DNA of 64,000 nt from positions 5,354-69,353 of the forward strand of contig CAZRKK010000002.1 of assembly GCA_964600695.1 (NCBI GenBank), read 5' to 3'. The DNA is from an uncultured Candidatus Saccharibacteria bacterium (GTDB lineage: Bacteria; Patescibacteriota; Doudnabacteria; UBA920). The notes under the pieces were generated by a model. The model saw only the letters and a program-made list of their open reading frames with translations, searched no databases and was not told the DNA's origin. A program made the translations under genes and the position numbers. The first letter of the stretch is position 1. Each line of letters opens with the position of its first letter. Positions 13,421 through 34,125 of the stretch are shown piece by piece.

Positions 13421-13426
13421 ATTATT

Positions 13427-13460
13427 AACTCCCTCTAGTAATTAGGGGGAGTTTTTTTAT
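13427..13460 (+). terminator. Intrinsic terminator closing the ribosomal/secY operon
   Basis: aactccctct ... agggggagtt hairpin + T7. Confidence 0.75.
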
Positions 13461-13480
13461 TGGTATTTATTAGGAGTTTT

Positions 13481-13489
13481 GTGGTATAA
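13481..13489 (+). promoter_or_regulatory. Extended -10 promoter (TGgTATAAT) giving a (near-)leaderless transcript for the ORF starting at 13500
   Basis: tgtggtataat; same motif recurs at 18166, 22150, 23637, 48965, 52065. Confidence 0.5.
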
Positions 13490-13499
13490 TATTCATATT

Positions 13500-13874
13500 A
13501 TGGCAGAAGAAATAAGAAAAATTCCTGGATTCGAATCAGAGCAATCTGCGGAACCAAATAGCAACGAGTCCCCAGAATCAGAACAGACTGAATCTCTAGA
13601 AGCATCGTCTTCGGAAACTCTGAGTGATAATAACTTAGACCAGCAGGATTTGAACGAGACACCAATTGAAGAAGAAGTCGATACATCTAACTTATCGATC
13701 GAATCAGCTTTAGAGCCCAAATCAGGAGTGACTGCTTCTGATTCTATTGCTTCCGAAAGTAACGATGAAGTTCTTTCTGAAAGATTGTTAGCCGACAGTA
13801 AAGAATTAGAGACTGCCACCGAAGCCCGTAAACTTTTAAATGATATCTTAGGCACAACCGAAACTAAAAACTAG
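13500..13874 (+). CDS. Highly acidic Ser/Glu/Asp-rich, probably disordered protein (124 aa from ATG 13500; ORF track start 13479 would lie inside the promoter)
   Basis: MAEEIRKIPGFESEQSAEPNSNESPESEQTESLEASSSE...; 36 nt upstream of the ATPase gene. Confidence 0.5.
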   Translation: MAEEIRKIPGFESEQSAEPNSNESPESEQTESLEASSSETLSDNNLDQQDLNETPIEEEVDTSNLSIESALEPKSGVTASDSIASESNDEVLSERLLADSKELETATEARKLLNDILGTTETKN

Positions 13875-13909
13875 GTTTGTAAAATAAAAGCAAAAAATAA
13901 AAATTATCA

Positions 13910-16468
13910 ATGCCTTTTGGATTTGAACTCAATACTGTAATTTATGCATCACTACTACTAGGAATTTTAGTAGTAGTGTTTTTGCTTGTCGCTGCTTATT
14001 ATATTCACAGGCATTGGTATTACAGTCATGTCATTTTACCCCGCACTAAAGAGTGGGTGTTTTTGGAAATTCAAATGCCAAAAGACAACAGCGAGGATAA
14101 AGAAAAATATCAACGCGATGAAGAAAAAAAATTACTAATTGGTATTGCCGAGCAATTATTCACAACTTTATCAGGAATTAGTCACACTAATTGGTTTTGG
14201 CAACCTAAAGAATATATAAGTTTTGAAATTGCGTGTACAGACAAAAAGATTTCCTTTTATATCAATTGTCCGCGTAAGCTTCAGGAGCTAATAGAAAAAC
14301 AAGTTCAAGCTCAGTACCCTCACGCTTTTATCGAGGAGATTAAAGGCTATAATCCCTTTCCAGAAACTGGGGAGATCGAAGCTACCGAGTTAAGATTGAC
14401 CAAGCCTTATATGTATCCTTTTCGTACTTACAAGAGTATGGAAACAGATCCATTGAATGCGTTAACAAACGCTATGTCAAAACTGAGCGATGGTGATGGG
14501 GCGGTTATTCAAATGATTTTGTATCCAGCAGGGGATCACTGGCAGCATCGTCCGCGGCACATGGCTTTAGAAATTCAGCAAGGTAAAAATCCGAACATTG
14601 TTGCCAAGAGTGCGTTTGGAAGATTTGCGCGCGAGGTAGGAAGCACAGCTAAGGATGGTGTCTTAGGTGGAACTCAGTTAAGTAAAGATCAAATGCAACA
14701 ACGTACCGATTTGTCGGGACGTTATTCGGCCATCAACTTAACTCCGATGCAACAAGACATGGTTAAGCGTTTCGAAGAAAAAGCTAGCCGCCCAGGCTTC
14801 TATACCAACATTCGTATTGTCACAGCATCACCAACTCCTGGAACAGCTAAAGTGAATATGCATAATTTAGTGTCTTCATTTTTGCAGTACAACATGCCGC
14901 CGTTTAATGGTTTTAGAGTTAAGCGTCGTGCTAAGAAGCGTATTATTAAAGATTATATTTTTAGAATTTATCGCCGCTACGGACGTAAGTCTATTTTAAA
15001 TACCGAAGAATTAACTAGTATTTGGCATCTTCCGACTCCATTTTTGGAAACACCTAATATTAAATGGTTGTTATCTAAAAAAGCTCCACCACCTATAAAC
15101 TTGCAACCAGAAGGAATATTACTAGGCCGAAATATATATCGTGGGCAGGAGACACCAATTCATATGGCACGTGATGATCGTCGTCGTCACATGTATATTT
15201 TGGGACGTACTGGTGTGGGTAAAACCGAAATCATGAAATACATGTCCGTTCAAGATATCAAGAACGGTGATGGAATTTGTATTATCGATCCTCATGGTGA
15301 TTTTATTGAAGATGTTTTACCTCACATTCCAAAAGAACGAGCCGAAGATGTAATCTTATTTGACCCATTCGATACCGACAGGCCGATGGGTTTGAACATG
15401 CTCGAAGTCACTAGTGAAGGTCAAAAAGATTTTGCTGTTCAAGAAATGATCTCTATCTTTTATAAATTAGTTACAGATCCTGCGATGCTTGGACCTATGT
15501 TCGAGCACAACATGCGTAATGCCATGCTAACCTTAATGGCTGACGAAGAAAATCCTGGAACTATTGTTGAAGTCCCACGTATATTTACGGACACTGAATT
15601 CCAAAAGTATAAAGTCTCTAAATTAAATGATCCTGTGGTAAGAGCATTTTGGGAGAAAGAAATGGCCAAGACTTCCGATTTTCATAAGTCGGAAATGTTA
15701 GGTTACTTAGTTTCTAAAGTAGGCCGCTTTGTAGAAAATTCCATGATGCGAAATATTGTTGGTCAACCAAAGAGTTCTTTTAACTTCCGTGATATCATGG
15801 ATAACAAAAAAATTCTTTTGGTGAATTTAGCAAAGGGTAAAGTAGGGGAGGTGAACGCAAAATTAATTGGCTTAATTTTAGTGAGTAAAATTCAAATGGC
15901 GGCATTGTCCCGTGCAGATATTCCAGAAAGCGAACGCCAAGATTTCTATTTATATGTTGATGAATTCCAAAACTTTATTACCGATGCTTTTTCTTCTATT
16001 TTGAGCGAAGCCCGTAAGTATCGATTGAATTTGATTATTGGTCATCAGTTCTTAGCTCAGTTGGGGCAAGCAGCTGGTGCGCAAGGTGCAGCTAGTAACG
16101 ATTTACGTGATGCTGTGTTTGGTAATGCTGGTAGTATGGTAACTTTCCGTATTGGTGTAGAAGATAGTGAAGTTATGGCAAAGGAGTTTGCACCAACTTT
16201 TAATGAGTTTGATTTATTAAATGTCGATAGATTTAATGCTTTTGTAAAGTTGATGATTAATGGAACAGCCAGCAAACCATTTAACATGGCCACATACCCC
16301 TTAGCTAAACCAACTGAAGATCAAAAGAAGACAGGGGATGCTATTCGACAGTTATCAAGGTTAAAATTTGGTCGTCCACGGGCCGAAGTTGAAGCAGAAA
16401 TCCTAGAAGCCAGCCAAGTTGCTGATATGATGGCGGCTGGTCCAGGGAGTATCGAGAAAACGGTTTAA
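13910..16468 (+). CDS. Membrane-anchored P-loop ATPase of the VirD4/TraG/TraD type IV coupling-protein family, with a ~380-aa N-terminal domain of unknown function
   Basis: Single N-terminal TM helix; Walker A ILGRTGVGKTE; Walker B LYVDEFQNF; C-terminal ARKYRLNLIIGHQFLAQL resembles the coupling-protein R-x-x-G...Q...QL motif. Confidence 0.6.
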   Translation: MPFGFELNTVIYASLLLGILVVVFLLVAAYYIHRHWYYSHVILPRTKEWVFLEIQMPKDNSEDKEKYQRDEEKKLLIGIAEQLFTTLSGISHTNWFWQPKEYISFEIACTDKKISFYINCPRKLQELIEKQVQAQYPHAFIEEIKGYNPFPETGEIEATELRLTKPYMYPFRTYKSMETDPLNALTNAMSKLSDGDGAVIQMILYPAGDHWQHRPRHMALEIQQGKNPNIVAKSAFGRFAREVGSTAKDGVLGGTQLSKDQMQQRTDLSGRYSAINLTPMQQDMVKRFEEKASRPGFYTNIRIVTASPTPGTAKVNMHNLVSSFLQYNMPPFNGFRVKRRAKKRIIKDYIFRIYRRYGRKSILNTEELTSIWHLPTPFLETPNIKWLLSKKAPPPINLQPEGILLGRNIYRGQETPIHMARDDRRRHMYILGRTGVGKTEIMKYMSVQDIKNGDGICIIDPHGDFIEDVLPHIPKERAEDVILFDPFDTDRPMGLNMLEVTSEGQKDFAVQEMISIFYKLVTDPAMLGPMFEHNMRNAMLTLMADEENPGTIVEVPRIFTDTEFQKYKVSKLNDPVVRAFWEKEMAKTSDFHKSEMLGYLVSKVGRFVENSMMRNIVGQPKSSFNFRDIMDNKKILLVNLAKGKVGEVNAKLIGLILVSKIQMAALSRADIPESERQDFYLYVDEFQNFITDAFSSILSEARKYRLNLIIGHQFLAQLGQAAGAQGAASNDLRDAVFGNAGSMVTFRIGVEDSEVMAKEFAPTFNEFDLLNVDRFNAFVKLMINGTASKPFNMATYPLAKPTEDQKKTGDAIRQLSRLKFGRPRAEVEAEILEASQVADMMAAGPGSIEKTV

Positions 16469-16509: not shown

Positions 16510-16538
16510 TTGACAAAATCAACTATTTGTGATATTAT
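16510..16538 (+). promoter_or_regulatory. Perfect-consensus sigma70 promoter TTGACA-N17-TATTAT
   Basis: TTGACA 16510-16515, 17-nt spacer, TATTAT 16533-16538; GGAGG RBS at 16578-16582. Confidence 0.65.
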
Positions 16539-16593
16539 ATTCGCAGTAGTTTTTTTGTAGTTTAAATCAATTTAGTTGGAGGACTTTGTTAAT

Positions 16594-17064
16594 ATGTATA
16601 AAAACTCGTTGGTCATGAAGATGATCCTAACGTTTGCGGCCTTTAGCGCCGTCGTTGTATTCCTGAACTACGTGGTCGGCATGCCGACTACTAAGCGCAT
16701 GAACTTCGTCTTGATGAGCTATGGTGTTGGTTCGGCCACCATCTTGGCTCTCGCGGCCGTTTTTCCGAGCCGTCTGACATCGGCGCTGTGCCGTCTTGTG
16801 CAGATTGGTTGGGCAGTGGCCATCGTTCTCGGTGGTTTTGCTATGATTATTATCATTGTGGTTGGTTTGGGGCAGTTTAACCTGCCGTTCCTATCGCTAC
16901 AGTGGTATAGCCTGTTCATGGCTTTAGGAATCTTGGGGGCCAGCGTGTTCATGTTTGTCAACGACTCGTATTTTGAAGTCGTTAACGAATATGAAAGCAA
17001 AGCTGGGAAGCCTAAGGTGGTGACACCGCCGGCAAACAGCACTTCGTCGAGCGTTTCGGCATAG
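16594..17064 (+). CDS. GC-rich (compositionally foreign) small 4-TM membrane protein (ATG 16594; ORF track uses TTG at 16576)
   Basis: Four hydrophobic helices; codons strongly G/C-ending (TCG, GCC, CCG, GTC) unlike flanking genes; own promoter and terminator. Confidence 0.6.
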   Translation: MYKNSLVMKMILTFAAFSAVVVFLNYVVGMPTTKRMNFVLMSYGVGSATILALAAVFPSRLTSALCRLVQIGWAVAIVLGGFAMIIIIVVGLGQFNLPFLSLQWYSLFMALGILGASVFMFVNDSYFEVVNEYESKAGKPKVVTPPANSTSSSVSA

Positions 17065-17091
17065 AAACTCCGCACAAGGGTTAGAAGTATT

Positions 17092-17128
17092 GGGTAAGAG
17101 CGAAAATATTCGCTTTTACCCTTTTTTT
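17092..17128 (+). terminator. Intrinsic terminator
   Basis: GGGTAAGAGCGAA-aata-TTCGCTTTTACCC hairpin + T7. Confidence 0.75.
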
Positions 17129-17169
17129 ATTGCCTAAAATTGCCATTTTAAAATTTCTGTTATCAGCTA

Positions 17170-17198
17170 TTGACAAAACATCAAAAATAGTGTATACT
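17170..17198 (+). promoter_or_regulatory. Consensus sigma70 promoter TTGACA-N17-TATACT followed by a ~180-nt structured leader
   Basis: TTGACA 17170-17175, TATACT 17193-17198; 11-bp perfect hairpin at 17234-17277; GGTCA/TGACC palindromes at 17276-17293 and 17331-17346; GGAGG RBS at 17371-17375. Confidence 0.6.
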
Positions 17199-17385
17199 GT
17201 TACTTAAACTAAATATTGGTTAGAAAGTGAATTACCTTCAGAAATTCAGATTTATCGAGATATGGTTTTCTGAAGGTCATGCACGTGTATGACTGTTGTA
17301 GCGCTGTAAATAAAAAAACAGCATTGTAACGGTCAATCACATGACCAAGTTTTCAAAAACAGCCTAAGGAGGGCTAATCAATACT

Positions 17386-18102
17386 ATGCAGAAATTCATT
17401 ATTTCGTTCGTTTTTGTCGCAATGTCACTTATGGCTGTTTCGTCGGCCTCGGCCCAGAATCCGGACTTGAACGTTCCGGTGCCTTCGGGAAAGACGCAGA
17501 CCACGAAGAGCCCGGACTTGAACGTTCCGGTGCCTAACAAGTCGGTTCAAAGTTCGGCTAACGTCTATAGGACGTACCGCAACACTACGGTCGTTAAGAA
17601 GTATTCCATGAACGGCGTCGACAAAGACGCTCGTGAAGTGAATGTCGCTCAGGACATTCGTATAAAAAAACTGGAAGACGGCAAGGCTAACTCGTCGGAC
17701 GTCGAAGCAGGATTTAAGTCGGTTGACGATCGTTTCGCGGCTAAGGATCAGGTGGATGCACGACAGGACCGAGAGCTCGGATATACTTTCTGGGCTTTCA
17801 TAATCATCCCGGTAGTCTTTCTGGTTCTGGCGTTGTTGTACTTCATGTTTGGAGGCAACAATAATAACGTTCAGGTTAACGGTGGTGGACATGCACCGGC
17901 ATACGTACCTCAGGCCCAGCCTGCAGTACAGCCGATACCATACTACCAGCCTATTCCTGCACAACCCGTTCCTGCGGCACAACCGGTTCCTGCAGCCAAC
18001 CAACAGCCAAGCGTAAATGTTCCGATCAATATTGCGGTCGAGCCGATTCAGATCGATCTCCGACCGTCGTTGCGTGGAACACCGCCGGCACCCGCTCAGT
18101 AG
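17386..18102 (+). CDS. GC-rich secreted/single-pass membrane protein with tandem PDLNVPVP repeats and a Pro/Gln-rich tail
   Basis: Signal peptide MQKFIISFVFVAMSLMAVSSASA; exact 24-nt direct repeat at 17461-17484 and 17512-17535; TM FWAFIIIPVVFLVLALLYFMF; tail PAVQPIPYYQPIPAQPVPAAQPVPA. Confidence 0.6.
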   Translation: MQKFIISFVFVAMSLMAVSSASAQNPDLNVPVPSGKTQTTKSPDLNVPVPNKSVQSSANVYRTYRNTTVVKKYSMNGVDKDAREVNVAQDIRIKKLEDGKANSSDVEAGFKSVDDRFAAKDQVDARQDRELGYTFWAFIIIPVVFLVLALLYFMFGGNNNNVQVNGGGHAPAYVPQAQPAVQPIPYYQPIPAQPVPAAQPVPAANQQPSVNVPINIAVEPIQIDLRPSLRGTPPAPAQ

Positions 18103-18109
18103 TGAGCAT

Positions 18110-18150
18110 CTCTCTTACAGAGAGCAAGGTAAAACTTGCTCTCTTTTTTC
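18110..18150 (+). terminator. Intrinsic terminator (two tandem hairpins + T-run)
   Basis: ctctcttacagagag and AGAGCAAG-gtaaaa-CTTGCTCT followed by TTTTTTC. Confidence 0.7.
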
Positions 18151-18212
18151 ATTTTTATAAAAAATAGTGGTATAATTAAAACAACTTTAAATTGTTAATT
18201 CGAAACAAAAAT

Positions 18213-21200
18213 ATGGCTAAAGCCGAAATGGCTCGTCAACCAGATCAAGGTCCAGAACCGGCAATTGACTTGTCGAAAACACTCAAAACCAGTGTAGATG
18301 ATGCTAAAAATAGAGCACGACCACGAGGCCGTGATGTTGATTTTGCTATCCAGCAGAATGATATGCGCGAAGCTAATTTAAGACAGGGTCATCCAGACAT
18401 ATCTGATAAAAAAGAGTTTATTCGACGGGAAAAGGCAAAGAACGAGGCGCGTAGTAAGTCTAAATCTGAAAAGGGACCTAAAAAGAATGAAGTAATTCTT
18501 CAACCTATAGCTCCGGCAGAAAAATTAAAAGCTGTAGTTAACCAAGAAAAAGCCGCGCAGAAACAAAAACCAGAGCAAAAGCCGGAAACACAGCCAGAAC
18601 AAAAGATAGCTCAACAAGAACAAAAAGCAGCCCAAGAAACCAGTAAAGTTGTAGAAAGTGTAGTTCAGGAAAGCACTAAAGAGATGTCCGCAGAAGTGGA
18701 CAAGGCACTTGCCGTACATGCAATTAGTCCAGAACATGCTCAGCAAGCCAAAGCAGTTATAAACAATGAACAGGTAAAGCAAGGAGTTTTTTCTAGAGCT
18801 TTTGGTGCTATAAAAGACAAAGCAGTGGGTGTTAAAGAGTGGTTTGCAGATAGTCCTAGGTTAACTTCACTTTTGGTTGGTGCGGGTACTGGTATGGGTG
18901 TTCGTTACGCTGTTAAGGCTGGGTTTATTGCTGCATTTGGAGCAAACTTACCTTGGTTGGTTGCCGCAGGTGCCACTGCAGGTGGTTTACTAGAAGGTGG
19001 GCGTTCATTTTGGCGTGAATCAAAATCCTATCAATCTAAAGAGATTATGGATCGGTTCAGAAGCGCGGATTATCTAGAAAAGGCAGCCATGCTTTCTAAG
19101 CTTGAGGAAGCATACAAAACCCAAAGATTTGATGCGTCTCCAGAAGGTTACCAAGAAATTGGTACAGCTTTGGCTCATGCTCGAACAGAAATGCAACTTG
19201 AATTAGACAAAAAGGATGGCAAGTTTGCTAATCATTCCGATCGAGATAAAATTCAATATATTTTAAATTTATCACAAGGTATTAAGGGTGAAATTCATAA
19301 AGATAATCGTGGTAAGGAAGCCAGAAAGCTTATTCGTGACATCGAAAAGAGCTTAGAGTACAAGCGTGATTTTAAAGGTGTCTTACAGAACAAAAAGATG
19401 GTAGTTGCCAAGGCAGCTCTTAAAGGTGCAGCTTATGGTGGGCTGGGTTCATTAATCGGTGGGGCAGTATCACACTATTTCTTCGAAAGTGGAACAACTC
19501 AAACTGTCAGCCATGTTGTCGAGAACAGACCTACTGTGGCAGATCATTTTACAAAACATTTAGATCATCGAGGTTTAACCGGTGGTGCTCGTGATTCATT
19601 GCATGATTTGATAGAAGAACAAAGAGGTATTGATCCTAATTTTGCCGAAGGAGTCACTGTAGAGCAACTAGTTTATGCAGAAGACACTCTCGCTAAAGAG
19701 GCTATTAAAAATGGCGTTAAGTCTGGCGTTTCGGAGCATACTTGGACTCATGATGAGTTGATGCGAGCCTTAGAAAAATCTGGAGCGGTTGGAGATAGTT
19801 CTACGCTTACTGAAGCAGGAGAAAGGAATATCGGACGATTGATTTCGCATCGACCTCATTTCTTGTCCGAAGCTACCAAAGAGAAAATGCTTGATTTTAC
19901 ACCTAAAGATTTTAATGTAGTTGTTGAGCAAATTACTTCTCAACCAGAAAATATCGTTCTCTCAAACGAAGATTATGCAGCTATTATTGGTGCACTAACC
20001 CTAGTAGCGGCTTCAGAAGTGGCTAGTGCCGCCGACAGAAGAATCGCTAAGAATCGGCTTGAACAAATGCAAGCGAATCCTCCAACTGGCCAGCCAGGGG
20101 ATGGTGTAGAAACAGCTCCAGCTAATAATGTTGTATGGCCTACAGAAGGTGTTCTTACTGCAGAAGAAGCACGTGTGGATAATAGAAAATTCCCTAATGG
20201 CCCACCACCGTCACCATTTGATGGTAATGTAGAAACTACTCCTACACCTAAACCAGAGGGTAGTCCTTTTGATGACGAAAAAAAGCAAAATGCAGAGTCG
20301 ACTACTAATAAAGCAGGTAAGGTTGAGGAAATTGACGAAGATGTTGAAGCTCAAGTGGATGTACAAGATTTGCCTGGTGTAGAAAAAATCAAAGACTCGG
20401 AAGTTACTCCCGATGCAATTAATCGAAAACTGAAGAGTGCAAAAGTTAATGCAGAAGTAGTACCATGGCCTTTAGAAAAGATTACCAACAAACAGAAAGG
20501 ACAAATTAACAGATTAACTGATTTATATATTTCTTCGGCACGCAAGTTAAACGCCTTAAATATTACAAATAAGGTTGTCTTGAATTTTTATCCAACAGGT
20601 TCAAGAGAGTTAGATTTTACAGATTCTGAATTTACCGCTGGTATTCCTCTTAGTGATAAAACTTATAATAAAAAGAGCTTCGAGAGCTTAGTAGATAGGA
20701 TGATTGAAACTAAGATTTCCGAAAAGTTTGCTGAAATACAAAATAACTATGCATTTCAAACAGAGATGCCTGTCATAGGAAATTCAGAGGATGATCAAGC
20801 TGTTGAACAGTATAAAGCTTTAGATAAATTCCAGCGAAACATGGAAGCAATCGACGCAAAAGAATTAAAACGACTAACTTCTGGACTTAAGAAAGTTACA
20901 ATTGGTGACTATTCATTTATAGGTACTGATGAGGTGGTTCTACCAATGTTTATTAGAGACAACAGGGGTTATCATTATAAATCTTTCAAGCCTAACCAAT
21001 TAAAGGGTATGTTGAAAGAGTATTCCAAAGATCGGTTTGCGTTAAAGCCGATGGATTTAAAAGAGCAGAATGATAAATATCCAAATATTGGAGCAGATAA
21101 AAACTTTTACGATAATATCGAGGAAGCTGAGAGGATAAAAGCAGAAGAATTAGTATACAGTGTTATTGAAAATGAATTCAAAGATGGTTTTCCACCAAAC

Positions 21201-21806
21201 GTAAAGGTATTGTTTTCGGATAGATTCCAGTCAAAGCCAGGTGTCTTATACCTCGACATGTCAAAGTTTGACCAAGCATATATTAGTCGTCAGCTTCACC
21301 AAGGATTGCGTCGTTCTGCGCCAGATCGTTTACAGCGCACTCCTGGTCCTGTTAAAGAGCGTTTAAAGCGGGTTTCTCCTGATTATGGGAATAAAAAGTC
21401 TGACCAAGACAAAGCCATTGAAGCAGCTGTTGATAGAATAATTCGACCCGAAGATTGGGAGAAAAAAGAAACTGGGCCAGCTAATTTAAACCATATTGAA
21501 GAACAGAACGGAGAAGATGAGCTCTATAGTTTACTTGGAGACATAGATAAGAAATATCCAGGGTCTATCTCCGAAAGCATGCAAAAAAAGATCTCTAGTT
21601 ACTTAAAAGACAATAATTTATCAGCAGAGGATTTACTAACCGCCGATAAATTACCTAAAATTACGAGTGTTCTTCCTAAAAAACTTGAGCAGTACATAGC
21701 CGAAGAGTCGTTTGCTAAACTAGAAAAACTGGCAATGGCCGACGAGGATTATACTGACGAAGGCATTAGATTAAAAAATCAGTTAGAAGAATTCATCAAA
21801 AAATAA
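18213..21806 (+). CDS. Giant hypothetical protein (~1197 aa): K/Q/E-rich disordered N-terminus, Gly-zipper hydrophobic hairpin, large C-terminal region without recognised catalytic motif
   Basis: Continuous 3.6-kb ORF; promoter atagTGgTATAAT at 18166-18176; hydrophobic LTSLLVGAGTGMGVRYAVKAGFIAAFGANLPWLVAAGATAGGLL; start ATG 18213 (ORF track 18192 is TTG). Confidence 0.6.
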   Translation: MAKAEMARQPDQGPEPAIDLSKTLKTSVDDAKNRARPRGRDVDFAIQQNDMREANLRQGHPDISDKKEFIRREKAKNEARSKSKSEKGPKKNEVILQPIAPAEKLKAVVNQEKAAQKQKPEQKPETQPEQKIAQQEQKAAQETSKVVESVVQESTKEMSAEVDKALAVHAISPEHAQQAKAVINNEQVKQGVFSRAFGAIKDKAVGVKEWFADSPRLTSLLVGAGTGMGVRYAVKAGFIAAFGANLPWLVAAGATAGGLLEGGRSFWRESKSYQSKEIMDRFRSADYLEKAAMLSKLEEAYKTQRFDASPEGYQEIGTALAHARTEMQLELDKKDGKFANHSDRDKIQYILNLSQGIKGEIHKDNRGKEARKLIRDIEKSLEYKRDFKGVLQNKKMVVAKAALKGAAYGGLGSLIGGAVSHYFFESGTTQTVSHVVENRPTVADHFTKHLDHRGLTGGARDSLHDLIEEQRGIDPNFAEGVTVEQLVYAEDTLAKEAIKNGVKSGVSEHTWTHDELMRALEKSGAVGDSSTLTEAGERNIGRLISHRPHFLSEATKEKMLDFTPKDFNVVVEQITSQPENIVLSNEDYAAIIGALTLVAASEVASAADRRIAKNRLEQMQANPPTGQPGDGVETAPANNVVWPTEGVLTAEEARVDNRKFPNGPPPSPFDGNVETTPTPKPEGSPFDDEKKQNAESTTNKAGKVEEIDEDVEAQVDVQDLPGVEKIKDSEVTPDAINRKLKSAKVNAEVVPWPLEKITNKQKGQINRLTDLYISSARKLNALNITNKVVLNFYPTGSRELDFTDSEFTAGIPLSDKTYNKKSFESLVDRMIETKISEKFAEIQNNYAFQTEMPVIGNSEDDQAVEQYKALDKFQRNMEAIDAKELKRLTSGLKKVTIGDYSFIGTDEVVLPMFIRDNRGYHYKSFKPNQLKGMLKEYSKDRFALKPMDLKEQNDKYPNIGADKNFYDNIEEAERIKAEELVYSVIENEFKDGFPPNVKVLFSDRFQSKPGVLYLDMSKFDQAYISRQLHQGLRRSAPDRLQRTPGPVKERLKRVSPDYGNKKSDQDKAIEAAVDRIIRPEDWEKKETGPANLNHIEEQNGEDELYSLLGDIDKKYPGSISESMQKKISSYLKDNNLSAEDLLTADKLPKITSVLPKKLEQYIAEESFAKLEKLAMADEDYTDEGIRLKNQLEEFIKK

Positions 21807-21809
21807 GCC

Positions 21810-22124
21810 ATGATTAAAGATACAATAGACAAGGTTCTTAAAGAGTTAAACGTCAACAATCTATCTGATGATGATAAGTTTGCGGTGATGGAGCAACTTA
21901 CAGAGCACTTTAACAAAATCATTCTAGACACAGTACTAGCTAATCTTAATGACGAGCAACTCCTCGAGTTTAAGAATATGGTTGATCTGGAGGATTTAGA
22001 TAAAATGGAAGAAGGAATTGCTCTTATTGTAGCCAAAATTCCCGCAATAAACTTTAAAATCGAAGAAGCCATTAATAATGAAATCGCTCATATTAAAGAA
22101 TCCAAAGCGATAATCGATCGATAG
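21810..22124 (+). CDS. Small acidic helical protein, translationally coupled (3-nt gap) to the giant protein; candidate chaperone/immunity-type partner
   Basis: 104 aa, Asp/Glu-rich (NLSDDDKFAVMEQLTEHF ... DLEDLDKMEEG). Confidence 0.5.
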   Translation: MIKDTIDKVLKELNVNNLSDDDKFAVMEQLTEHFNKIILDTVLANLNDEQLLEFKNMVDLEDLDKMEEGIALIVAKIPAINFKIEEAINNEIAHIKESKAIIDR

Positions 22125-22234: not shown

Positions 22235-22882
22235 ATGGATAAATCAGCAAATTTTGCTTTGATCGTGCAAATGATCGAAGCTGCAGAAAAGAATATTCAA
22301 TCGGCTAAGCATTTATTGCGAGAAATGGCCGGTGGAACTGTATCTAAATCTTCCACTAACTTTTTAGAAAAGGCTAGTGGTCTTGATGTTAGTCAAGGTG
22401 GTAAAGTTGTCGAGGGTGTGTTTGATGGACAAAACATGATTGGTCCGGATAGCAAACAGTACCCAGTTCCAGCTAATTATGCATCCAAATCCAAATTAGT
22501 TGAAGGTGATGTGCTTAAATTAACAATCGCAGATGACGGCTCGTTTATTTATAAGCAGATTGGGCCAGTTGAGCGTCGCAAGTTGATTGGTGTGTTAATG
22601 CAGGACGAAAATGGTGATTATAAAGTTATCGCAGATGGCAAAACTTTTCGGGTTTTATTGGCTTCACTTACTTATTTTAAAGCTCAGGGTGGTGACGAAG
22701 TAACTATTGTTGTCCCTAGTGAAGGTGATACTCAATGGGCTGCAGTAGAAAATGTGATCAAGCATTTAGGTGGTGACGGAAGTTCCGACGGGGAATTTAG
22801 TGCATCCGCTGGGCTGCAAGACCAAAAAGATGAAGACATGGAAGCTGAGGGTTTAGCCTCTGGCGAGACAGAAGAATTTTAA
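22235..22882 (+). CDS. Hypothetical protein with acidic C-terminal tail
   Basis: 215-aa ORF; upstream ttgTGgTATAGT extended -10 at 22148-22158 and CA-rich SD-less leader. Confidence 0.55.
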   Translation: MDKSANFALIVQMIEAAEKNIQSAKHLLREMAGGTVSKSSTNFLEKASGLDVSQGGKVVEGVFDGQNMIGPDSKQYPVPANYASKSKLVEGDVLKLTIADDGSFIYKQIGPVERRKLIGVLMQDENGDYKVIADGKTFRVLLASLTYFKAQGGDEVTIVVPSEGDTQWAAVENVIKHLGGDGSSDGEFSASAGLQDQKDEDMEAEGLASGETEEF

Positions 22883-23722: not shown

Positions 23723-25273
23723 ATGGCAGTATTTTACCAAACATATCGACCACAAAATTTTTTGGAAGTCATTGGCCAAGAGGCGATTGTTAAAACCCTT
23801 CAACAAGCTGTTGCAAGCGGGAAGATTGGTCATGCTTATTTGTTTACCGGCAGTCGTGGTATAGGAAAAACTACACTAGCAAGGATACTGGCTAAGGCCG
23901 CTAACTGTAATACTCTTAAAGATGGTAACCCTTGTGGGATTTGTGATATTTGTTTAAATATCGCCAATGGTTCCTTCTTGGATGTAATAGAAATTGACGC
24001 TGCATCTCATACTGGTGTAGATAACATCCGCGAACTCATCGAACATATTAGATTTCAACCTTCACAGGGTAGAACTAAAGTTTTTGTAATAGACGAAGTA
24101 CATATGCTTTCCAAAGCAGCCTTTAATGCTTTACTCAAAACTTTAGAAGAACCACCATCACATGTCTTGTTCATTTTAGCTACTACTGACATAGAAAAAG
24201 TTCCGGATACGATTATTTCTCGAACTCAGCGATTTGATTTTAGAAAGATTACTACCGATCAAATTAAAAAAGCTTTGCAACAAATTGTTAAGGTAGAAAA
24301 ATTATCTTTGCCAGAAGAGGCTATTGATGTCATTGTCGAAAATAGTGAAGGTGGTTTACGAGATGCTTTATCTCAATTATCATTAGCTGCTCATTTAGAT
24401 AGCTCTGCAAAGGCAGAAGACATTCATTTGTTGTTGGGAACAACATCACGGTCATCAGTTTTGGAGTTGTTGAATTTAATTTCCGAAGGTAAGACTTATG
24501 AGTTAAACGCTTTTTTTAACAAATTAACTCAAGCTAATTTTGATGCTGTTTCTTTTGCCAGAAAGACTTTAGTTATTTTACAGGAGCATTTAGAGGCAAA
24601 TCTTTCTGCTTCGAGTGACGGTAAAAATGGCGCTAATGATTTGATTGCAAGTCTTAGCCTTGCTCAGTTACTTTACATTATTCGATTGTTTATGCGAGCT
24701 TACAAAGAGATTGATAAAGCCTTAACTCCAGAACTTCCCTTGCTAATGGCTAGTATCGAAGCGGCGTTATTTATTAAACCTAACTCGACAATTTCTGTGG
24801 AAAAAGGCCGAAGTGAGCAAAGTAGCTCCGCGGCTACAGCATCGATAATTTCTACAAGTGAATTAGTGGATATACCAATTCAAAAGCAACCAGTTTTTGC
24901 TACAGAAAATATCGAGCCCGAGCAGGATAGTGATTTAAATTTAACAGCTGAACAGGTTAAAGAGTGGTGGCCTGGTCTTGTAGCAGAAGTGAAGGCAGTG
25001 AACAGCCCTTTGTCTACTTTGTTAAAAAATTCTCCTATCCATGAGGTTTCCGGTAATCGAGTCAGTGTAATGGTTAGATACCTTTTCCATAAAGAACATT
25101 TAGAAAATGCCAAGATTCGCGTGATGATTTCCAATTATCTAGGCGAAAAAGCTGGTGGAAACGTAGAATTTAGAGTAGTGATCCAAAAAGATTCGGTTGG
25201 AGAACAAATCGTTGATACGGCCTCTGCTGTATCTGATGCAATAAAAATATTCGGTGGCGAATTGGTGGAGTAA
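23723..25273 (+). CDS. dnaX: DNA polymerase III subunit gamma/tau
   Basis: GHAYLFTGSRGIGKTTLARILAKAANC; clamp-loader AAA+ motifs. Confidence 0.9.
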   Translation: MAVFYQTYRPQNFLEVIGQEAIVKTLQQAVASGKIGHAYLFTGSRGIGKTTLARILAKAANCNTLKDGNPCGICDICLNIANGSFLDVIEIDAASHTGVDNIRELIEHIRFQPSQGRTKVFVIDEVHMLSKAAFNALLKTLEEPPSHVLFILATTDIEKVPDTIISRTQRFDFRKITTDQIKKALQQIVKVEKLSLPEEAIDVIVENSEGGLRDALSQLSLAAHLDSSAKAEDIHLLLGTTSRSSVLELLNLISEGKTYELNAFFNKLTQANFDAVSFARKTLVILQEHLEANLSASSDGKNGANDLIASLSLAQLLYIIRLFMRAYKEIDKALTPELPLLMASIEAALFIKPNSTISVEKGRSEQSSSAATASIISTSELVDIPIQKQPVFATENIEPEQDSDLNLTAEQVKEWWPGLVAEVKAVNSPLSTLLKNSPIHEVSGNRVSVMVRYLFHKEHLENAKIRVMISNYLGEKAGGNVEFRVVIQKDSVGEQIVDTASAVSDAIKIFGGELVE

Positions 25274-30850: not shown

Positions 30851-31489
30851 ATGCTTATTCCGGCAATATTAGAAAATAATAAAAAGAAATATTTAGAAAA
30901 TCTAAAAGCAGTTTTAGCATTGAAGAATATCAAGTCTATACAAATAGATTTTGCCGATGGGGAATTTGTGGCCACTAAAACTTTACCAATCGCCGAGATA
31001 GAACTTCCTGCAAGGTCTAAAATTTTGTTCGAAGCACATTTGATGGTTAAAGAACCCAAGGATTTTGTTTTGTATCAAAAGGCTGGGTTTAAAAAAATCA
31101 TCGTTCATTACGAAGCTTTTAAAAGTGAACTTGATTTAGAAGCAGCTATAGAAGAAATAAAAAAGTTAAAAATGATTCCTGCAATAGCCATTTCTCCAAC
31201 TAGTGAAATTTCTGTAATTCGTTATCATACTGATACAATCAAGGACTTCACTTTGTTGGCTGTGGTTCCGGGTAGGCAAGGACAAAAAATGTTACCAGAA
31301 ACTTTTGATCGACTTCGAGAATTAAGAGATCATGCCCCAGGTGCAAATATCGAGATAGATGGCGGAGTTGATGGTAAAAATATTGCTTCTTTAATAGACG
31401 CCGGCGCAACAGATTGCGTAGCAGGTTCAAGTTTACTAAGAGGTGATATTAAAGAGAATTATAAAGTGCTTATGGAGGCTTTAAAATAA
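30851..31489 (+). CDS. rpe: Ribulose-phosphate 3-epimerase-like TIM-barrel protein
   Basis: IQIDFADGEFV and EAHLMVKEP resemble Rpe metal-binding segments; position between rpiB and tkt. Confidence 0.65.
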   Translation: MLIPAILENNKKKYLENLKAVLALKNIKSIQIDFADGEFVATKTLPIAEIELPARSKILFEAHLMVKEPKDFVLYQKAGFKKIIVHYEAFKSELDLEAAIEEIKKLKMIPAIAISPTSEISVIRYHTDTIKDFTLLAVVPGRQGQKMLPETFDRLRELRDHAPGANIEIDGGVDGKNIASLIDAGATDCVAGSSLLRGDIKENYKVLMEALK

Positions 31490-32340
31490 TGTCAAAACTT
31501 TCATCAACAGATTTACAACTAACTGCTAATAAAATTCGAGAAGATATTATCAGTATGTTAGTGGAGGCGGGGAGTGGTCACAGCGCCGGACCTTTAGGTA
31601 TGGCTGATGTTTTCACTGCTTTGTATTTTGAAGTCATGAATATTAATCCTCATGACCCTAATTGGGAAGAACGTGATTGGTTAATTTTATCGTGTGGCCA
31701 TATTTGTCCAGTGTTGTACGCAACAATGTCTGAACGTGGCTATTTCCCAGCGTCAGAATTAAAATCGCTTCGCAAGCTTGGTACTCGTTTGCAAGGACAT
31801 CCTCATAACTTATCTTTACCTGGCATAGAAACAACTAGCGGACCCTTAGCACAGGGTGCTTCTCAGGCTGTGGGAGTAGCTTTAGCAATGCGGATGAGTG
31901 GTAAAAAGAATCGTGTTTATTTAGTGATGTCGGATGGTGAGCAAAATGAAGGTCAGATTTGGGAAGCTGTTATGTTGGCTGGCAAAGAAAAACTTCATAA
32001 TCTTACTGCCATTATAGACCGCAATAATATTCAAATTGATGGTTATACAGAAGATGTTATGCCTTTGGACAATTTGAAAGCAAAGTACGAAGCCTTTAAT
32101 TGGCACGTTATAGAAGTTGATGGACACAATATTCAGGCAGTGATTAATGCCTATCGTGAAGCAGAGGCGGTGTATGAAAAACCAACAGTCATTATTGCGC
32201 ATACCATTCCAGGGAAGGGCGTGGACTTTATGGAGGGTAAGTTTGAATGGCATGGTAAACCACCAAAAGCTGACGAAGCCAAATTAGCTCTGCAAGAGCT
32301 ACGTACATTGCAAGGAAAAATTAAAAGTGAACATGAATAA
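31489..32340 (+). CDS. Transketolase, N-terminal (TPP-binding) subunit
   Basis: GSGHSAGPLGMADV ... DGEQNEGQIWEA. Confidence 0.85.
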   Translation: MSKLSSTDLQLTANKIREDIISMLVEAGSGHSAGPLGMADVFTALYFEVMNINPHDPNWEERDWLILSCGHICPVLYATMSERGYFPASELKSLRKLGTRLQGHPHNLSLPGIETTSGPLAQGASQAVGVALAMRMSGKKNRVYLVMSDGEQNEGQIWEAVMLAGKEKLHNLTAIIDRNNIQIDGYTEDVMPLDNLKAKYEAFNWHVIEVDGHNIQAVINAYREAEAVYEKPTVIIAHTIPGKGVDFMEGKFEWHGKPPKADEAKLALQELRTLQGKIKSEHE

Positions 32341-32367: not shown

Positions 32368-34125
32368 ATGACAATTCTAATAGGGCTTATTGTAATAATA
32401 TTTTTAATTACTTTAAGCAGAAGAGTTTCTAAAATTGAAGATGCTCTTAAAATCAATCCTGCATTAGGTCGGGCTGTACAACAGCCAGTACCACAGCCAC
32501 AAACCGCACAACCATTACAAGTTGCTCAAACAGCAAAGGTTGCCCAAAAAGCTAGTGCTACTCAACCGGTTGTTGTTGAAACTAATCATCTTGATTCAAA
32601 ATCTTTTGTTAATGCCTTGCCAAAAATTGGGGTCATTGCTCTAGTATTTGGTTTAGCATTTTTCCTAAAATATGCGATTGATCAAGGATGGATTAGTGAA
32701 TCTTTGCGTTTGGGTTTGGGTGCAGTGGTTGGTGGATTGTTATTGGTTCTATTTTATTTATGGAAAGAAAAATATGCTAAGTATGCCTTAGTCTTGGCTG
32801 GTGGAGGATTAGCTATTTGGTATTTAACAATTTTTGCAGCAGTAGAAATGTATGCCATGTTGAGCATGAATGGTGGATTAATCATTTTGTCGATAGTTAC
32901 TATAATCGGTTTATTGCTGGCATATAAAACAAAGTCTCCGAGTTTATCAGCTTTGGCTTGGGGAGGCGCATTTTTATCTCCAATCATATTGTCGTTTAAT
33001 TCCAGTTCTTATAGTTTAATGTTGATTTATATCAGCATCGTCGTGTTGGGATTACTAACATCTATTGTTTATACGAAGTCTTACAAATTATTTGCACTTA
33101 TAATTGCTGGAACTGCCGTTAACTTATTATTCGGGTTGTTCGCAGGATTGTTCACAGAAGAATATTATATTAGAACTCTAATCTTTTTAATAATCCATCT
33201 ATGTGCTAATACGTTTGTAATTACTAATCTTATTCGATCCGATAAAGCAGAGAATAAAGAAATAAATCAAACAGAGTTCGGGCTTTTATTAGTTTTGATA
33301 TTTGCAATTTTTGTGTTGCCAACAGCGTTGATTGCATACTTTAAGTTTAATGATTACTCTACACTTATCATGACTGCTTTGGCTGTTTGGACTTTCCTAA
33401 TTTATGCATTTATTGATCGATTAGAGCTCACTAAGCTTAATTATTTGTTGTCTGGGTTTGGCACATCTCTTTTAGTAATTAGTGTGATTTGGCAGTTTGG
33501 TGATAATTCTCAAGTAGTTATGTTTTATATTCTGGGTTTGGTGGGGATTATCGTTGGTTATATTCAAAAACGAGCGGAACTTCGAGCGTGGGGAGTTTCT
33601 ACAGTTATGGTTGGTCTAGTCTCAGCTTGTTTGGTTAGTTATGGTTCTGTTCCACAGTTGATTGTCACTCAAAAATTTGGTCTCGAAATGCTCGGGTTGG
33701 TAGCATTGGGTGTCGCATATATTTTCTTTAAGGAAGATCAACTCTCAGAATTCGAACATGATATTCATTTAGCAATTCAGTATCTCATAGCTGGATTTGC
33801 ATGGTTCTTTATTTCTTGGGACTTGTATAACTACTATTCTGCTTTCGACCAAGTTAATCAAAGAAATCTATCCTTAAGTTTGTGGTGGTTGGTTTATGCA
33901 ACACTCTTACTTGGAGCTTCTGTTACTCACGTTCTTAAACCTTTAAGAAAAGTAGGTTTGTTGCTATTTGGTTTAGTAATTATCAAAGTGTTTCTTTATG
34001 ACGTGCAGAGTCTAGATATGGTTTATAGAATAATTTCATTTATCAGTTTAGGTGTAATTCTGTTGGTGGTCTCATTTATCTATCAACACAACAAAGAAAA
34101 AATTATCAAATATATTGAATCTTAA
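32368..34125 (+). CDS. Polytopic integral membrane protein (585 aa, ~14 TM) encoded between the two transketolase halves
   Basis: Hydrophobic throughout; stop overlaps the next start (TAATG at 34123-34127). Confidence 0.7.
   Translation: MTILIGLIVIIFLITLSRRVSKIEDALKINPALGRAVQQPVPQPQTAQPLQVAQTAKVAQKASATQPVVVETNHLDSKSFVNALPKIGVIALVFGLAFFLKYAIDQGWISESLRLGLGAVVGGLLLVLFYLWKEKYAKYALVLAGGGLAIWYLTIFAAVEMYAMLSMNGGLIILSIVTIIGLLLAYKTKSPSLSALAWGGAFLSPIILSFNSSSYSLMLIYISIVVLGLLTSIVYTKSYKLFALIIAGTAVNLLFGLFAGLFTEEYYIRTLIFLIIHLCANTFVITNLIRSDKAENKEINQTEFGLLLVLIFAIFVLPTALIAYFKFNDYSTLIMTALAVWTFLIYAFIDRLELTKLNYLLSGFGTSLLVISVIWQFGDNSQVVMFYILGLVGIIVGYIQKRAELRAWGVSTVMVGLVSACLVSYGSVPQLIVTQKFGLEMLGLVALGVAYIFFKEDQLSEFEHDIHLAIQYLIAGFAWFFISWDLYNYYSAFDQVNQRNLSLSLWWLVYATLLLGASVTHVLKPLRKVGLLLFGLVIIKVFLYDVQSLDMVYRIISFISLGVILLVVSFIYQHNKEKIIKYIES

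Follow-up and report, generated by a model that had tools for sequence, protein, structure and literature searches.

The window analysed here, a 64,000-nucleotide stretch of DNA, contains a gene for a predicted membrane-anchored P-loop ATPase of the group that we call type A, preceded by a small ORF on the same strand (Table 1). The gene lies in core chromosome, between a ribosomal-protein/secY operon and dnaX, and its GC content equals that of its flanks. The initial annotation had described this ORF as encoding a type IV coupling protein (T4CP)-like ATPase, and the motifs that it named (Walker A, Walker B and ARKYRLNLIIGHQFLAQL) are all located in the translation. Across 44 diverse aligned homologues, residues G432, G437, K438, D684, E685, K703, Q713 and Q717 do not vary and, judging by the conserved motifs, the nucleotide-binding domain of the type A ATPase is catalytically intact. 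The single transmembrane helix that had been proposed is likewise present, since both the sequence and the structure model have one N-terminal hydrophobic helix, which spans residues 9-47 in the model. Because basic residues follow this helix, the positive-inside rule predicts that the bulk of the protein is cytoplasmic, and the N-terminus should lie outside.

Table 1. Features of the ATPase locus, with positions in the window
Feature	Position	Strand	Detail or basis
Terminator-like hairpin and T-run just 3' of secY	13427..13453	+	12-pair stem, then TTTTTATT
Extended -10-like element TGgTATAAT	13482..13490	+	Read from sequence; ends 9 nt before ATG 13500
Small acidic, polar partner ORF	13500..13874	+	124 aa from ATG; 131 aa from TTG 13479
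Type A DUF8128/T4CP-like ATPase gene	13910..16468	+	ATG start, 852 aa
Single N-terminal transmembrane helix, residues ~9-31	13934..14002	+	Sequence; basic residues after helix
DUF8128 (PF26449) domain, residues ~48-400	14051..15109	+	VirB4 N-terminal-domain-like fold
T4CP-like nucleotide-binding domain, residues ~403-800	15116..16309	+	PF10412, PF02534, TrwB, Foldseek
Walker A GRTGVGKT, residues 432-439	15203..15226	+	Sequence and homologue alignment
All-helical insertion in nucleotide-binding domain, residues ~503-631	15416..15802	+	Secondary structure of the model
Walker B LYVDEFQNF, residues 681-689	15950..15976	+	Sequence and homologue alignment
ARKYRLNLIIGHQFLAQL motif, residues 701-718	16010..16063	+	Arginine/sensor region, VirD4/TraG type
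Strong promoter-like site TTGACA-17 nt-TATTAT with TG	16510..16538	+	Sequence scan
Giant ORF, 1204 aa (1197 aa from first ATG)	18192-21806		Downstream of ATPase
p215, conserved uncharacterised protein	22235..22882	+	Directly upstream of dnaX

The C-terminal half of the protein groups with T4CPs by sequence, as first proposed, with TrwB, DotL, TraD and VirD4-like profiles ranking top. The Pfam profiles PF10412 (TrwB_AAD_bind; 41.3 bits against a cut-off of 20.5, residues 419-729) and PF02534 (T4SS-DNA_transf; 27.7 bits against 20.1, residues 426-729) both match above their cut-offs, and TraG-D_C matches weakly at residues 680-746. TrwB and DotL are the best matches in PDB sequence searches, whether a single sequence or a family profile is used; TrwB is found with E=5e-8, and its structure 1e9r aligns to residues 417-727. 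Because the two Pfam profiles exceed their cut-offs and TrwB is recovered at this E-value, the sequence assignment to T4CPs is far beyond chance. Foldseek comparison of the model with TrwB gives target-normalised TM-scores of 0.62-0.65. In the model, the helical insertion sits between core strands, within the TrwB_AAD_bind match and at the position of the all-alpha domain of T4CPs.

Placement in the HerA, FtsK or KAP clades, which would have argued against the initial annotation, is not what the profile searches indicate. No FtsK_SpoIIIE or KAP profile matches the ATPase, and matches to DUF87/HerA are limited to the ~55-residue P-loop region. The NCBIfam HerA model scores 16 bits against a cut-off of 970, and HerA chains rank beneath TrwB and DotL in PDB sequence searches. 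The NCBIfam equivalog or subfamily cut-offs for TraD and VirD4 are also missed widely, by SXT_TraD (50.9 bits against 366), the CD1115 VirD4-like model (32.4 against 250) and TraD_Ftype (21.1 against 521). Assignment to the VirD4/TraG/TraD branch holds for the ATPase half by sequence, but does not extend to the whole protein, which is not a canonical member of that branch because its N-terminal domain is DUF8128, with a VirB4-like fold.

In common with T4CPs (TrwB of R388, VirD4, TraD/TraG, DotL and Cagbeta), the window protein has a P-loop domain with a helical insertion, the Walker A, Walker B and RKY...HQ motifs, and N-terminal membrane anchoring. However, in T4CPs a short N-terminal membrane domain, typically with two transmembrane helices, leads directly into the nucleotide-binding domain, whereas the window ATPase has one transmembrane helix and a folded VirB4-like domain of ~350 residues. 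It also differs from T4CPs in being a phylum-wide chromosomal core gene with no relaxase or T4SS genes nearby.

The ~380 residues that follow the transmembrane helix had been left unassigned, and they have no match in the Pfam-A and NCBIfam copies searched. The region can nevertheless be assigned, as precomputed annotation places PF26449 (DUF8128) on the identical protein (P0001) and on 239 of the 240 listed homologues. The structure model of this domain is confident (pLDDT 90) and folds like the N-terminal domain of VirB4, and the full-length ATPase model aligns with VirB4 over about 940 columns. This modelled likeness is structural only. The VirB4 Pfam profiles (CagE_TrbE_VirB and AAA_10) do not match the ATPase at E<=0.01, NCBIfam VirB4_plasma reaches just 16 bits, with its match on the P-loop, and VirB4 chains are absent among the PDB sequence matches, including those obtained with the family profile. 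Compared with VirB4 (TrwK of R388; 7o42, 7o43 and 8rtd), the window protein has no sequence-profile similarity to either the N- or the C-terminal domain, its ATPase half is nearer to T4CPs by sequence, and its gene is not beside virB3, virB6 or virB8 homologues. Literature searches on PF26449 and DUF8128 found no papers, and the VirB4-like head domain, which is common to both paralogue groups of the family, appears to be undescribed.

The N-terminal domain is found in 2,130 clusters at 50% identity, always at the N-terminus, and a scan of species-representative genomes detected at least 599 relatives, with labels that include ABY1, Paceibacteria, Microgenomatia, Gracilibacteria, Berkelbacteria and Saccharimonadia. 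The family reaches all major classes of Patescibacteria and comprises two paralogues, types A and B, which have the same DUF8128 plus T4CP-like architecture, are 35-39% identical, and can be found together in one genome, at times within a few kb of each other. The window protein scores about 715 bits to type A versus about 515 bits to type B and a neighbour-joining tree places it outside the type B clade, and on these sequence comparisons it is type A. Type B genes have a sigma-70 region 4 / HARE-HTH gene directly upstream, rather than a small polar ORF, in four of the six cases seen, and at L087 and L088, where gene calls exist, their products are longer (1038-1140 aa). Type A orthologues retain their partner and synteny across classes at 40-90% identity, and type A is a core gene that is apparently inherited vertically.

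The conserved partner of the type A ATPase is the small upstream ORF. In the window, the ORF directly upstream of the ATPase (13479/13500-13874, according to the start codon) is acidic and of low complexity, in keeping with the acidic disordered neighbour of the initial annotation. Its product is probably disordered, and at its C-terminal end the short motif ARKLLNDIL resembles a helix. Of the 79 loci with enough upstream sequence, 60 have an ORF of 80-260 aa ahead of the ATPase gene and on the same strand; the median length of these ORFs is 153 aa, and the median gap to the ATPase is 11 nt. The small ORFs are homologous within lineages (for example, family 3 in 21 loci and family 5 in 12), and have no match in Pfam, NCBIfam or PDB sequences.

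The operon-like layout suggests that the ATPase is cotranscribed with the small partner, as it appears to be from sequence. The extended -10-like element upstream of the partner is missing from the promoter scan because it has no -35 match; if this element is used, the mRNA of the small ORF would be leaderless or nearly so. The terminator-like hairpin downstream of secY is the putative upstream boundary of a two-gene module, and the promoter-like site that follows the ATPase gene would start a separate unit and mark the downstream boundary. Small proteins are also encoded or act with the coupling ATPases of the Cagbeta-CagZ system and of DotL with IcmS/IcmW/LvgA, and fold matches for the ATPase half of the window protein include the structure of Cagbeta-CagZ (8dol). 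In contrast to those systems, the window partner has no detectable homology to CagZ or IcmS/IcmW/LvgA, and its role as a partner is putative.

No Pfam families for VirB4, VirB6, VirB8-10, relaxase or pilin were found in the scanned ORFs of at least 100 aa in the 64-kb window, and the genes that recur in about 90 related loci, drawn from many classes, include none for a T4SS. The earlier observation that T4SS genes are not nearby is therefore correct for the window and extends to these related loci. That the ATPase is an orphan without the rest of a T4SS is, however, not a conclusion that 64 kb allows, as most Patescibacteria carry a T4SS at another locus, and T4CP homologues rarely lie near virB4 in this group (only 148 of 5,713; PMC12102498).

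Genes that recur near type A have housekeeping functions or are linked to such genes, and comprise p215-dnaX, gyrBA, ribonucleotide reductase, Xer-type recombinase, RmuC and tRNA synthetases. gyrB-gyrA neighbours are found in a Saccharimonadia-type clade of type A, and ribonucleotide reductase and Xer-type recombinase neighbours in loci that include Levy- and Woesebacteria records. The usual downstream neighbour is p215, which is found downstream of the type A gene in 28 loci and has no match in Pfam, NCBIfam or PDB sequences; it is regarded as context, and its adjacency does not imply membership of the system.

The giant protein encoded downstream had been put forward as a possible partner. 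Among 83 loci searched with tblastn, it is detectable only in that of the closest relative (L001; 27% identity over part of its length), and it is rejected as a conserved partner. It is encoded within a lineage-specific insertion that carries promoter-like and terminator-like sites of its own. In the same 83 loci, a 162-aa and a 238-aa membrane protein have no tblastn match and a 104-aa ORF has one, in L001, and these too are rejected as partners. Linkage to the SecY/ribosomal operon is found only in the two closest relatives, and is not a general feature.

Counterparts of the two-gene module can be proposed in S. epibionticum. The Tn-seq table for this species scores both SEML1_0141 (139 aa; GD/ES/ES) and SEML1_0142 (1019 aa; ES/ES/ES) as essential. 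These genes are separated by a gap of 12 nt and followed by gyrB-gyrA, and the P-loop domain of SEML1_0142 begins near residue 380. A small ORF, a DUF8128 ATPase of 941-1116 aa, gyrB and gyrA is also the layout of one type A subclade, whose members come from Saccharibacteria/Saccharimonadales records and share with SEML1_0142 the NCBI name "TraM recognition domain-containing protein". SEML1_0141 and SEML1_0142 are probably a type A pair, on the basis of synteny, name, length and taxon rather than alignment; protein searches seeded with other clades returned no protein labelled ML1 among their matches. SEML1_0142 differs from the window ATPase in being longer, with a C-terminal tail, and in having gyrBA downstream, whereas p215-dnaX is downstream in the lineage of the window. 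SEML1_0293 ("t4cp"), which is non-essential in S. epibionticum, lies behind the sigma gene SEML1_0294 and looks like type B. Literature searches on SEML1_0141, SEML1_0142 and SEML1_0293 found no papers. Type A is probably essential.

The T4SS of Patescibacteria is widespread and is essential in S. epibionticum, and its gene cluster has no recognisable coupling protein (PMC10633639). VirB4 is found in 2,417 of 3,035 Patescibacteria assemblies, and T4CP homologues are found in 2,918 of 3,035 genomes (PMC12102498). We favour, with a little less than even confidence, the reading in which type A supplies the second ATPase that is missing from this chromosomal T4SS. We infer that the type A ATPase would oligomerise into a membrane-attached ring, like TrwB and VirB4, and would work as a second, coupling-type ATPase of a T4SS encoded elsewhere on the chromosome. 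Its VirB4-like N-terminal domain would stand in for the two-helix membrane domain of ordinary T4CPs, and could dock at the inner-membrane platform of the T4SS, either on VirB3/PrgI-type and VirB8-type partners or on VirB4 itself. The small partner might be an adaptor, a regulator or a substrate that acts via its conserved C-terminal helix, and SEML1_0141 and SEML1_0142 would be the equivalent pair in S. epibionticum. Counting against a role in the T4SS are the housekeeping character of the recurrent neighbours of type A, which include no T4SS gene, the purely structural nature of the likeness between its N-terminal domain and VirB4, and the presence of T4CP homologues in more genomes than VirB4 (2,918 and 2,417, respectively; PMC12102498).

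The wider distribution of T4CP homologues than of VirB4 (PMC12102498) would also fit a stand-alone translocase, an idea near to that of the initial annotation, in which the ATPase works with its small partner as a membrane motor complete in itself and independent of any VirB4-based T4SS. Such a motor would export or recruit its own substrate, possibly the disordered partner, and the giant protein would have no part in it. This reading is consistent with the conservation of the two-gene module without any T4SS neighbour, and with the presence in the family of both a membrane anchor and a scaffold domain that resembles VirB4. However, one transmembrane helix per subunit provides no obvious channel, and the membrane proteins encoded downstream, the giant protein among them, are lineage-specific. 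Known T4CPs and VirB4s, moreover, need channel partners of the VirB6/VirB8 type, which counts against a translocase that acts alone, and we consider this explanation unlikely.

The neighbouring genes raise a different candidate function, that of a housekeeping DNA motor. Type A would then form an ATPase ring attached to the membrane and work on the chromosome of its own cell rather than in secretion, with roles in replication-coupled segregation, decatenation or dimer resolution. T4CPs are related to FtsK, and type A is an apparently vertical, probably essential core gene with recurrent linkage to dnaX (28 loci), gyrB-gyrA, ribonucleotide reductase, a Xer-type recombinase and RmuC. This function is nevertheless distinctly improbable. 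A canonical FtsK, SEML1_0096, is present and essential in S. epibionticum, and the idea that type A replaces FtsK is weakened for this reason. The type A ATPase also lacks an FtsK gamma domain, or any other domain for DNA recognition, and does not match the FtsK_SpoIIIE profile. The linkage may only mirror clustering of highly expressed core genes, which has been proposed to explain the occurrence of virB4 near dnaA (PMC12102498).

A very doubtful possibility is that type A is a nucleic-acid import motor that pulls host DNA or RNA into the cell and so meets nucleotide auxotrophy, by analogy with the archaeal Ced/Ted DNA importers and their VirB4/HerA-like ATPases. Patescibacteria are without nucleotide synthesis, access to host material through T4SS-like pili has been proposed (10.64898/2026.06.21.733656), and T4SS loci in the ABY1 class are commonly found alongside competence genes (PMC12102498). 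Deletion of comEC abolished transformation and left viability unaffected (PMC12857230), and therefore DNA uptake by ComEC is not the essential function. Although weak NCBIfam matches to CedD and CedB are present around the P-loop, they span only about 60-80 residues and are far under cut-offs (27 bits versus 600).

T4CPs are usually encoded on mobile elements, and PADLOC mad8 matches the ATPase half (E=2.9e-16), as do HerA and DndH weakly, but a conjugative-element remnant or an anti-phage defence component (MADS mad8-like or HerA-like) is effectively refuted by context: the PADLOC matches are confined to the ATPase domain, the gene has a core-chromosome position with GC equal to its flanks and no integrase, relaxase, methyltransferase or defence partner, and type A orthologues hold their partner and core synteny across classes at 40-90% identity.

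Patescibacteria depend on hosts and may form a large share of bacterial diversity, and their T4SS is, to our knowledge, the first to be reported as essential to the bacterium that carries it. A survey paper regarded the scattered t4cp homologue as dispensable and perhaps exapted; these scattered homologues appear to be two paralogous groups. A broader proposal, which we regard as somewhat unlikely, is that type A ATPases and their small disordered partners constitute a phylum-wide, essential motor distinct from both classical VirB4 and classical VirD4. If so, the published dispensability of Patescibacteria t4cp would cover the type B paralogue only. In one version of this proposal, the motor would be an intermediate that has survived from between the VirB4 and VirD4 lineages of T4SS ATPases. 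As such, it would either heterodimerise with VirB4 via the shared N-terminal domain, as the sole coupling route of the Patescibacteria T4SS, or work alone, moving host-derived or self macromolecules across the membrane. The hybrid VirB4-like/T4CP architecture bears on the divergence of VirB4 and VirD4 and, if the reading of SEML1_0141 and SEML1_0142 holds, this pair would be a genetically testable candidate for the missing energising or coupling component of the T4SS.

The initial annotation's reading frame and ATPase motifs are all present in the sequence, and in an alignment of 44 homologues reaching down to 32% identity, residues G432, G437, K438, D684, E685, K703 and Q713 are invariant. 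Because these catalytic-motif residues are invariant, the ATPase looks catalytically competent. The single TM helix proposed earlier corresponds to one N-terminal hydrophobic helix (residues 9-47 in the model), a membrane anchor with basic residues after it; the positive-inside rule then predicts a cytoplasmic location for the remainder of the protein.

The placement of the C-terminal half among T4CPs also holds. Pfam models TrwB_AAD_bind (residues 419-729; 41.3 bits, cut-off 20.5) and T4SS-DNA_transf (27.7 bits, cut-off 20.1) match, TraG-D_C is slightly under threshold, and the DUF87 match is confined to the P-loop surroundings. NCBIfam matches are all sub-threshold: most are to models for TraD and VirD4-like proteins, and CedB/CedD, VirB4 and HerA match weakly at the P-loop. 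TrwB (E=5e-8, residues 417-727) and DotL are the top PDB sequence matches and HerA is next, a ranking unchanged with the family profile as query; neither search returned a VirB4 chain. In Foldseek, the ATPase half alone gave target-normalised TM-scores of 0.62-0.65 on TrwB. None of the Pfam, NCBIfam and PDB searches placed HerA, FtsK or a KAP NTPase first, and the ATPase is, judged by its sequence, of T4CP type.

The N-terminal half, previously considered unassignable, corresponds to PF26449 (DUF8128), which is precomputed on an identical database protein and on the homologues listed from the first search. When residues 36-405 were searched with phmmer against 1.84 billion cluster representatives, 2,130 clusters matched at E<=0.001; the matching proteins have the domain N-terminally without exception, and the longer ones are mostly about 800-1100 aa. 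AlphaFold models have pLDDT 85.8 for the whole protein and pLDDT 90 and pTM 0.87 for the N-domain only. The best 13 Foldseek matches are TrwK/VirB4 chains throughout (E 1.6e-5 to 5.8e-4), and the full-length model is collinear with VirB4 over about 940 columns, with the VirB4 N-terminal domain matched by the N-domain and its C-terminal domain by the ATPase. Because of these matches and this alignment, DUF8128 is assigned, from models, a VirB4-N-terminal-domain-like fold. No VirB4 sequence profile matches the DUF8128 protein, and the likeness is purely structural. The protein thus combines a TM helix with a VirB4-like N-domain and, after it, a nucleotide-binding domain that is T4CP-like and bears a helical insertion (residues ~503-631). 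Among known families the ATPase works most like T4CP and VirB4, but it differs from canonical T4CPs in N-terminal architecture, genetic context and equivalog cut-offs, and from VirB4 in genetic context and in having no sequence match. The literature searched contained no mention of DUF8128 or PF26449, nor of a VirB4-like fold for this domain.

The ATPase has core-gene status phylum-wide. Scanning a single genome for each species gave at least 599 relatives, and labels among the matches listed include Magasanik-, Uhr-, Falkow-, Komeili-, Berkel-, Staskawicz-, Curtiss-, Levy-, Woese-, Moran- and Peri-/Peregrinibacteria and Saccharibacteria; close relatives, at 70-92% identity, are in part labelled Doudnabacteria. 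Some MAG records with the gene (L004, L009, L012, L016, L052, L081 and others) are titled Gammaproteobacteria, Bdellovibrionales, Methylomirabilota or Bathyarchaeia, and some of these also carry adjoining p215 (a conserved protein gene) and dnaX. Such titles probably reflect wrong taxonomic labels or mis-binning of the contigs.

Two genomes (loci L087 and L088) each encode a pair of DUF8128 ATPases separated by a few kb. Type A (837-843 aa) follows a co-directional ORF that lacks a Pfam match and is small in L087 (170 aa) and larger in L088 (429 aa), where a p215 homologue lies downstream. Type B (1038-1140 aa) has a Sigma70_r4 and HARE-HTH gene directly upstream. This sigma-like gene precedes type B in four of the six cases seen (L023 and L030 also). 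The window ATPase shares 44-45% identity with type A (about 715 bits) and 35-37% with type B (about 515 bits), and it lies outside the single type B clade in a neighbour-joining tree; by these sequence comparisons it is type A, as is every one of the 80 loci that the window-derived query recovered. The split into two types with distinct conserved partners was not found in the literature searched.

Of the 79 type A loci whose upstream sequence is long enough, 60 have a small co-directional ORF of 80-260 aa directly ahead of the ATPase (medians: length 153 aa, gap 11 nt), often with overlapping stop and start codons. The products of this dedicated small partner gene are polar-rich, with a low-complexity N-terminus, homology within lineages and conserved C-terminal helices: WLKxIPGVNKFFLEQEAKIKTDKI in 21 loci (Magasanik-, Uhr-, Falkow- and Komeilibacteria records included), DPYILDxFHDxL in 12 (several from Staskawiczbacteria records) and RWLAEW-like motifs in further loci, including one Levyibacteriota record. 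The window's own, with a pI of 4.1, is acidic and has ARKLLNDIL at its end, and its closest relatives have similar end motifs. Given the flanking signals (see table), the most economical reading of 13500-16468 is a bicistronic module.

Coordinates of features (window positions unless another locus or the protein is named)
Feature	Position	Strand	Remarks
Terminator-like hairpin	13427-13453		after secY
Extended -10 element, TGgTATAAT	13482-13490		9 nt ahead of ATG at 13500
Small partner ORF	13500-13874	+	ends 35 nt before ATPase start
ATPase ORF	13910-16468	+	852 aa
Walker A, GRTGVGKT	ATPase residues 432-439
Walker B, LYVDEFQNF	ATPase residues 681-689
ARKYRLNLIIGHQFLAQL	ATPase residues 701-718
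Strong promoter-like site	16510-16538		opens next unit
162-aa protein	within 16576-22124		multi-TM
238-aa protein	within 16576-22124		signal peptide (secreted or TM); PDLNVPVP repeats, TM helix, Pro/Gln-rich tail
1204-aa protein	within 16576-22124		internal hydrophobic segments, Gly/Ala-rich
104-aa protein	within 16576-22124		acidic
p215	22235-22882
dnaX	23723-25273
Transketolase, N-terminal ORF	31489-32340
DUF2339 membrane protein	32368-34125		585 aa
Transketolase, pyrimidine-binding/C-terminal ORF	34125-35135
recJ	42754-44667
RVT_3-type RNase H	44648-45058
p215, example	L018 10558-11070		next from 11101
Sigma-like gene, type B ATPase	L087 7885-8910, 9001-12423
Sigma-like gene, type B ATPase	L088 7928-8950, 9001-12117

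The window as a whole is unremarkable core chromosome from an organism of Patescibacteria type. After the ribosomal-protein operon and secY come the module, dnaX, htrA, ruvX, pentose-phosphate and glycolysis genes and, further on, recJ, murA, mreB and PBPs; nearly all core genes from the ribosomal operon to the PBPs are on the + strand, and GC is steady at about 0.38-0.40. The spc operon normally continues from secY into adk, map, infA, rpmJ and so on. These genes are absent from 13421-13910, where the hairpin and module stand instead, an arrangement common only to the closest relatives (L001 and L002); SecY linkage, considered as a general feature, is limited to these two. Transketolase is split by the inserted DUF2339 gene, and the RNase H gene overlaps the recJ 3' end by about 20 nt.

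As first noted, T4SS genes are absent near the ATPase: the ORFs scanned in the 64-kb window gave no match to a T4SS, relaxase or pilin family, and no T4SS component recurs beside type A at related loci. The suggested partnership with the giant 1204-aa protein did not survive a co-occurrence check, since only the closest relative has a detectable counterpart, 27% identical along part of the length. It belongs to a 5.7-kb block (16576-22124) that separates the ATPase from p215, its usual downstream neighbour, and has its own promoter-like (16510 and 17170) and terminator-like (17092) sites. The block is lineage-specific, and none of its four proteins has a family match.

Type A is followed by p215 and then dnaX in 28 loci, which represent several Patescibacteria groups; dnaX often lies only a few tens of nt beyond p215. 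The p215 proteins (~165-215 aa) have an acidic tail and a conserved core, …GVFDGxxMxGxDGKxYxxPxNYASKSKLVxGDxLKLTI…, without a match in Pfam, NCBIfam or PDB sequence searches; p215 may be an uncharacterised replisome-associated or otherwise core protein. Downstream gyrB-gyrA mark one type A subclade that has relatives in Saccharibacteria records. Recurrent neighbours elsewhere are ribonucleotide reductase (RNR), a Xer-type recombinase, RmuC, CysRS and CorA.

T4CP homologues away from virB4 are already published for Patescibacteria: 5,713 of VirD4 type occur in 2,918 of 3,035 genomes, only 148 of them near virB4, and VirB4 is in 2,417 assemblies (Quinonero-Coronel et al., PMC12102498). The same survey describes the S. 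epibionticum ML1 t4cp homologue as not essential and perhaps exapted. The essential T4SS cluster of that organism, SEML1_0006-0019, was described as having no recognisable coupling and relaxase proteins (Wang et al., PMC10633639). In the supplementary Tn-seq tables of the latter study, SEML1_0293 (921 aa, PF10412 at 402-719) is non-essential at all three time points (NE/NE/NE) and directly follows SEML1_0294, an essential sigma factor with PF04545 and PF05066 (HARE-HTH), which is the type B layout. SEML1_0142 (1019 aa, "TraM recognition domain-containing protein", P-loop domain 381-800) is essential at all three (ES/ES/ES), and SEML1_0141 (139 aa, 12-nt gap ahead of it) shows a growth defect and is then essential (GD/ES/ES); gyrB-gyrA are two genes beyond SEML1_0142 (PMC10633639). 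This layout is identical to that of loci L089-L091, whose ATPases retrieve Saccharibacteria/Saccharimonadales proteins that bear the same NCBI name and carry DUF8128, often without a PF10412 match. From layout and shared name, we infer that SEML1_0141/0142 are an essential type A pair and that type B is where the published "non-essential t4cp" belongs. The survey's statement (PMC12102498) fits SEML1_0293; Table S1 of PMC10633639 lists SEML1_0142 and its upstream ORF as essential. Probable essentiality of the type A pair was not found in the literature searched.

Our tentative preference is that the chromosomal T4SS has in this protein its second ATPase, the one of coupling type. The protein would form a ring at the membrane, as with TrwB and VirB4, its VirB4-like N-domain would dock at VirB4's place, on VirB3/PrgI-type and VirB8-type partners or the VirB4 N-domain itself, and the small partner would be an adaptor, regulator or substrate. 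That ATPase and partner suffice as a stand-alone translocase seems unlikely. The recurrent neighbours dnaX, gyrBA, RNR and Xer could point to a housekeeping DNA motor, a rather improbable role that the canonical essential FtsK in S. epibionticum weakens, and a nucleic-acid importer analogous to Ced is very doubtful. A mobile-element or defence remnant is essentially excluded by context. A coupling-type ATPase would account for the lack of a coupling protein in the essential T4SS cluster, and for SEML1_0141/0142 being essential as well.
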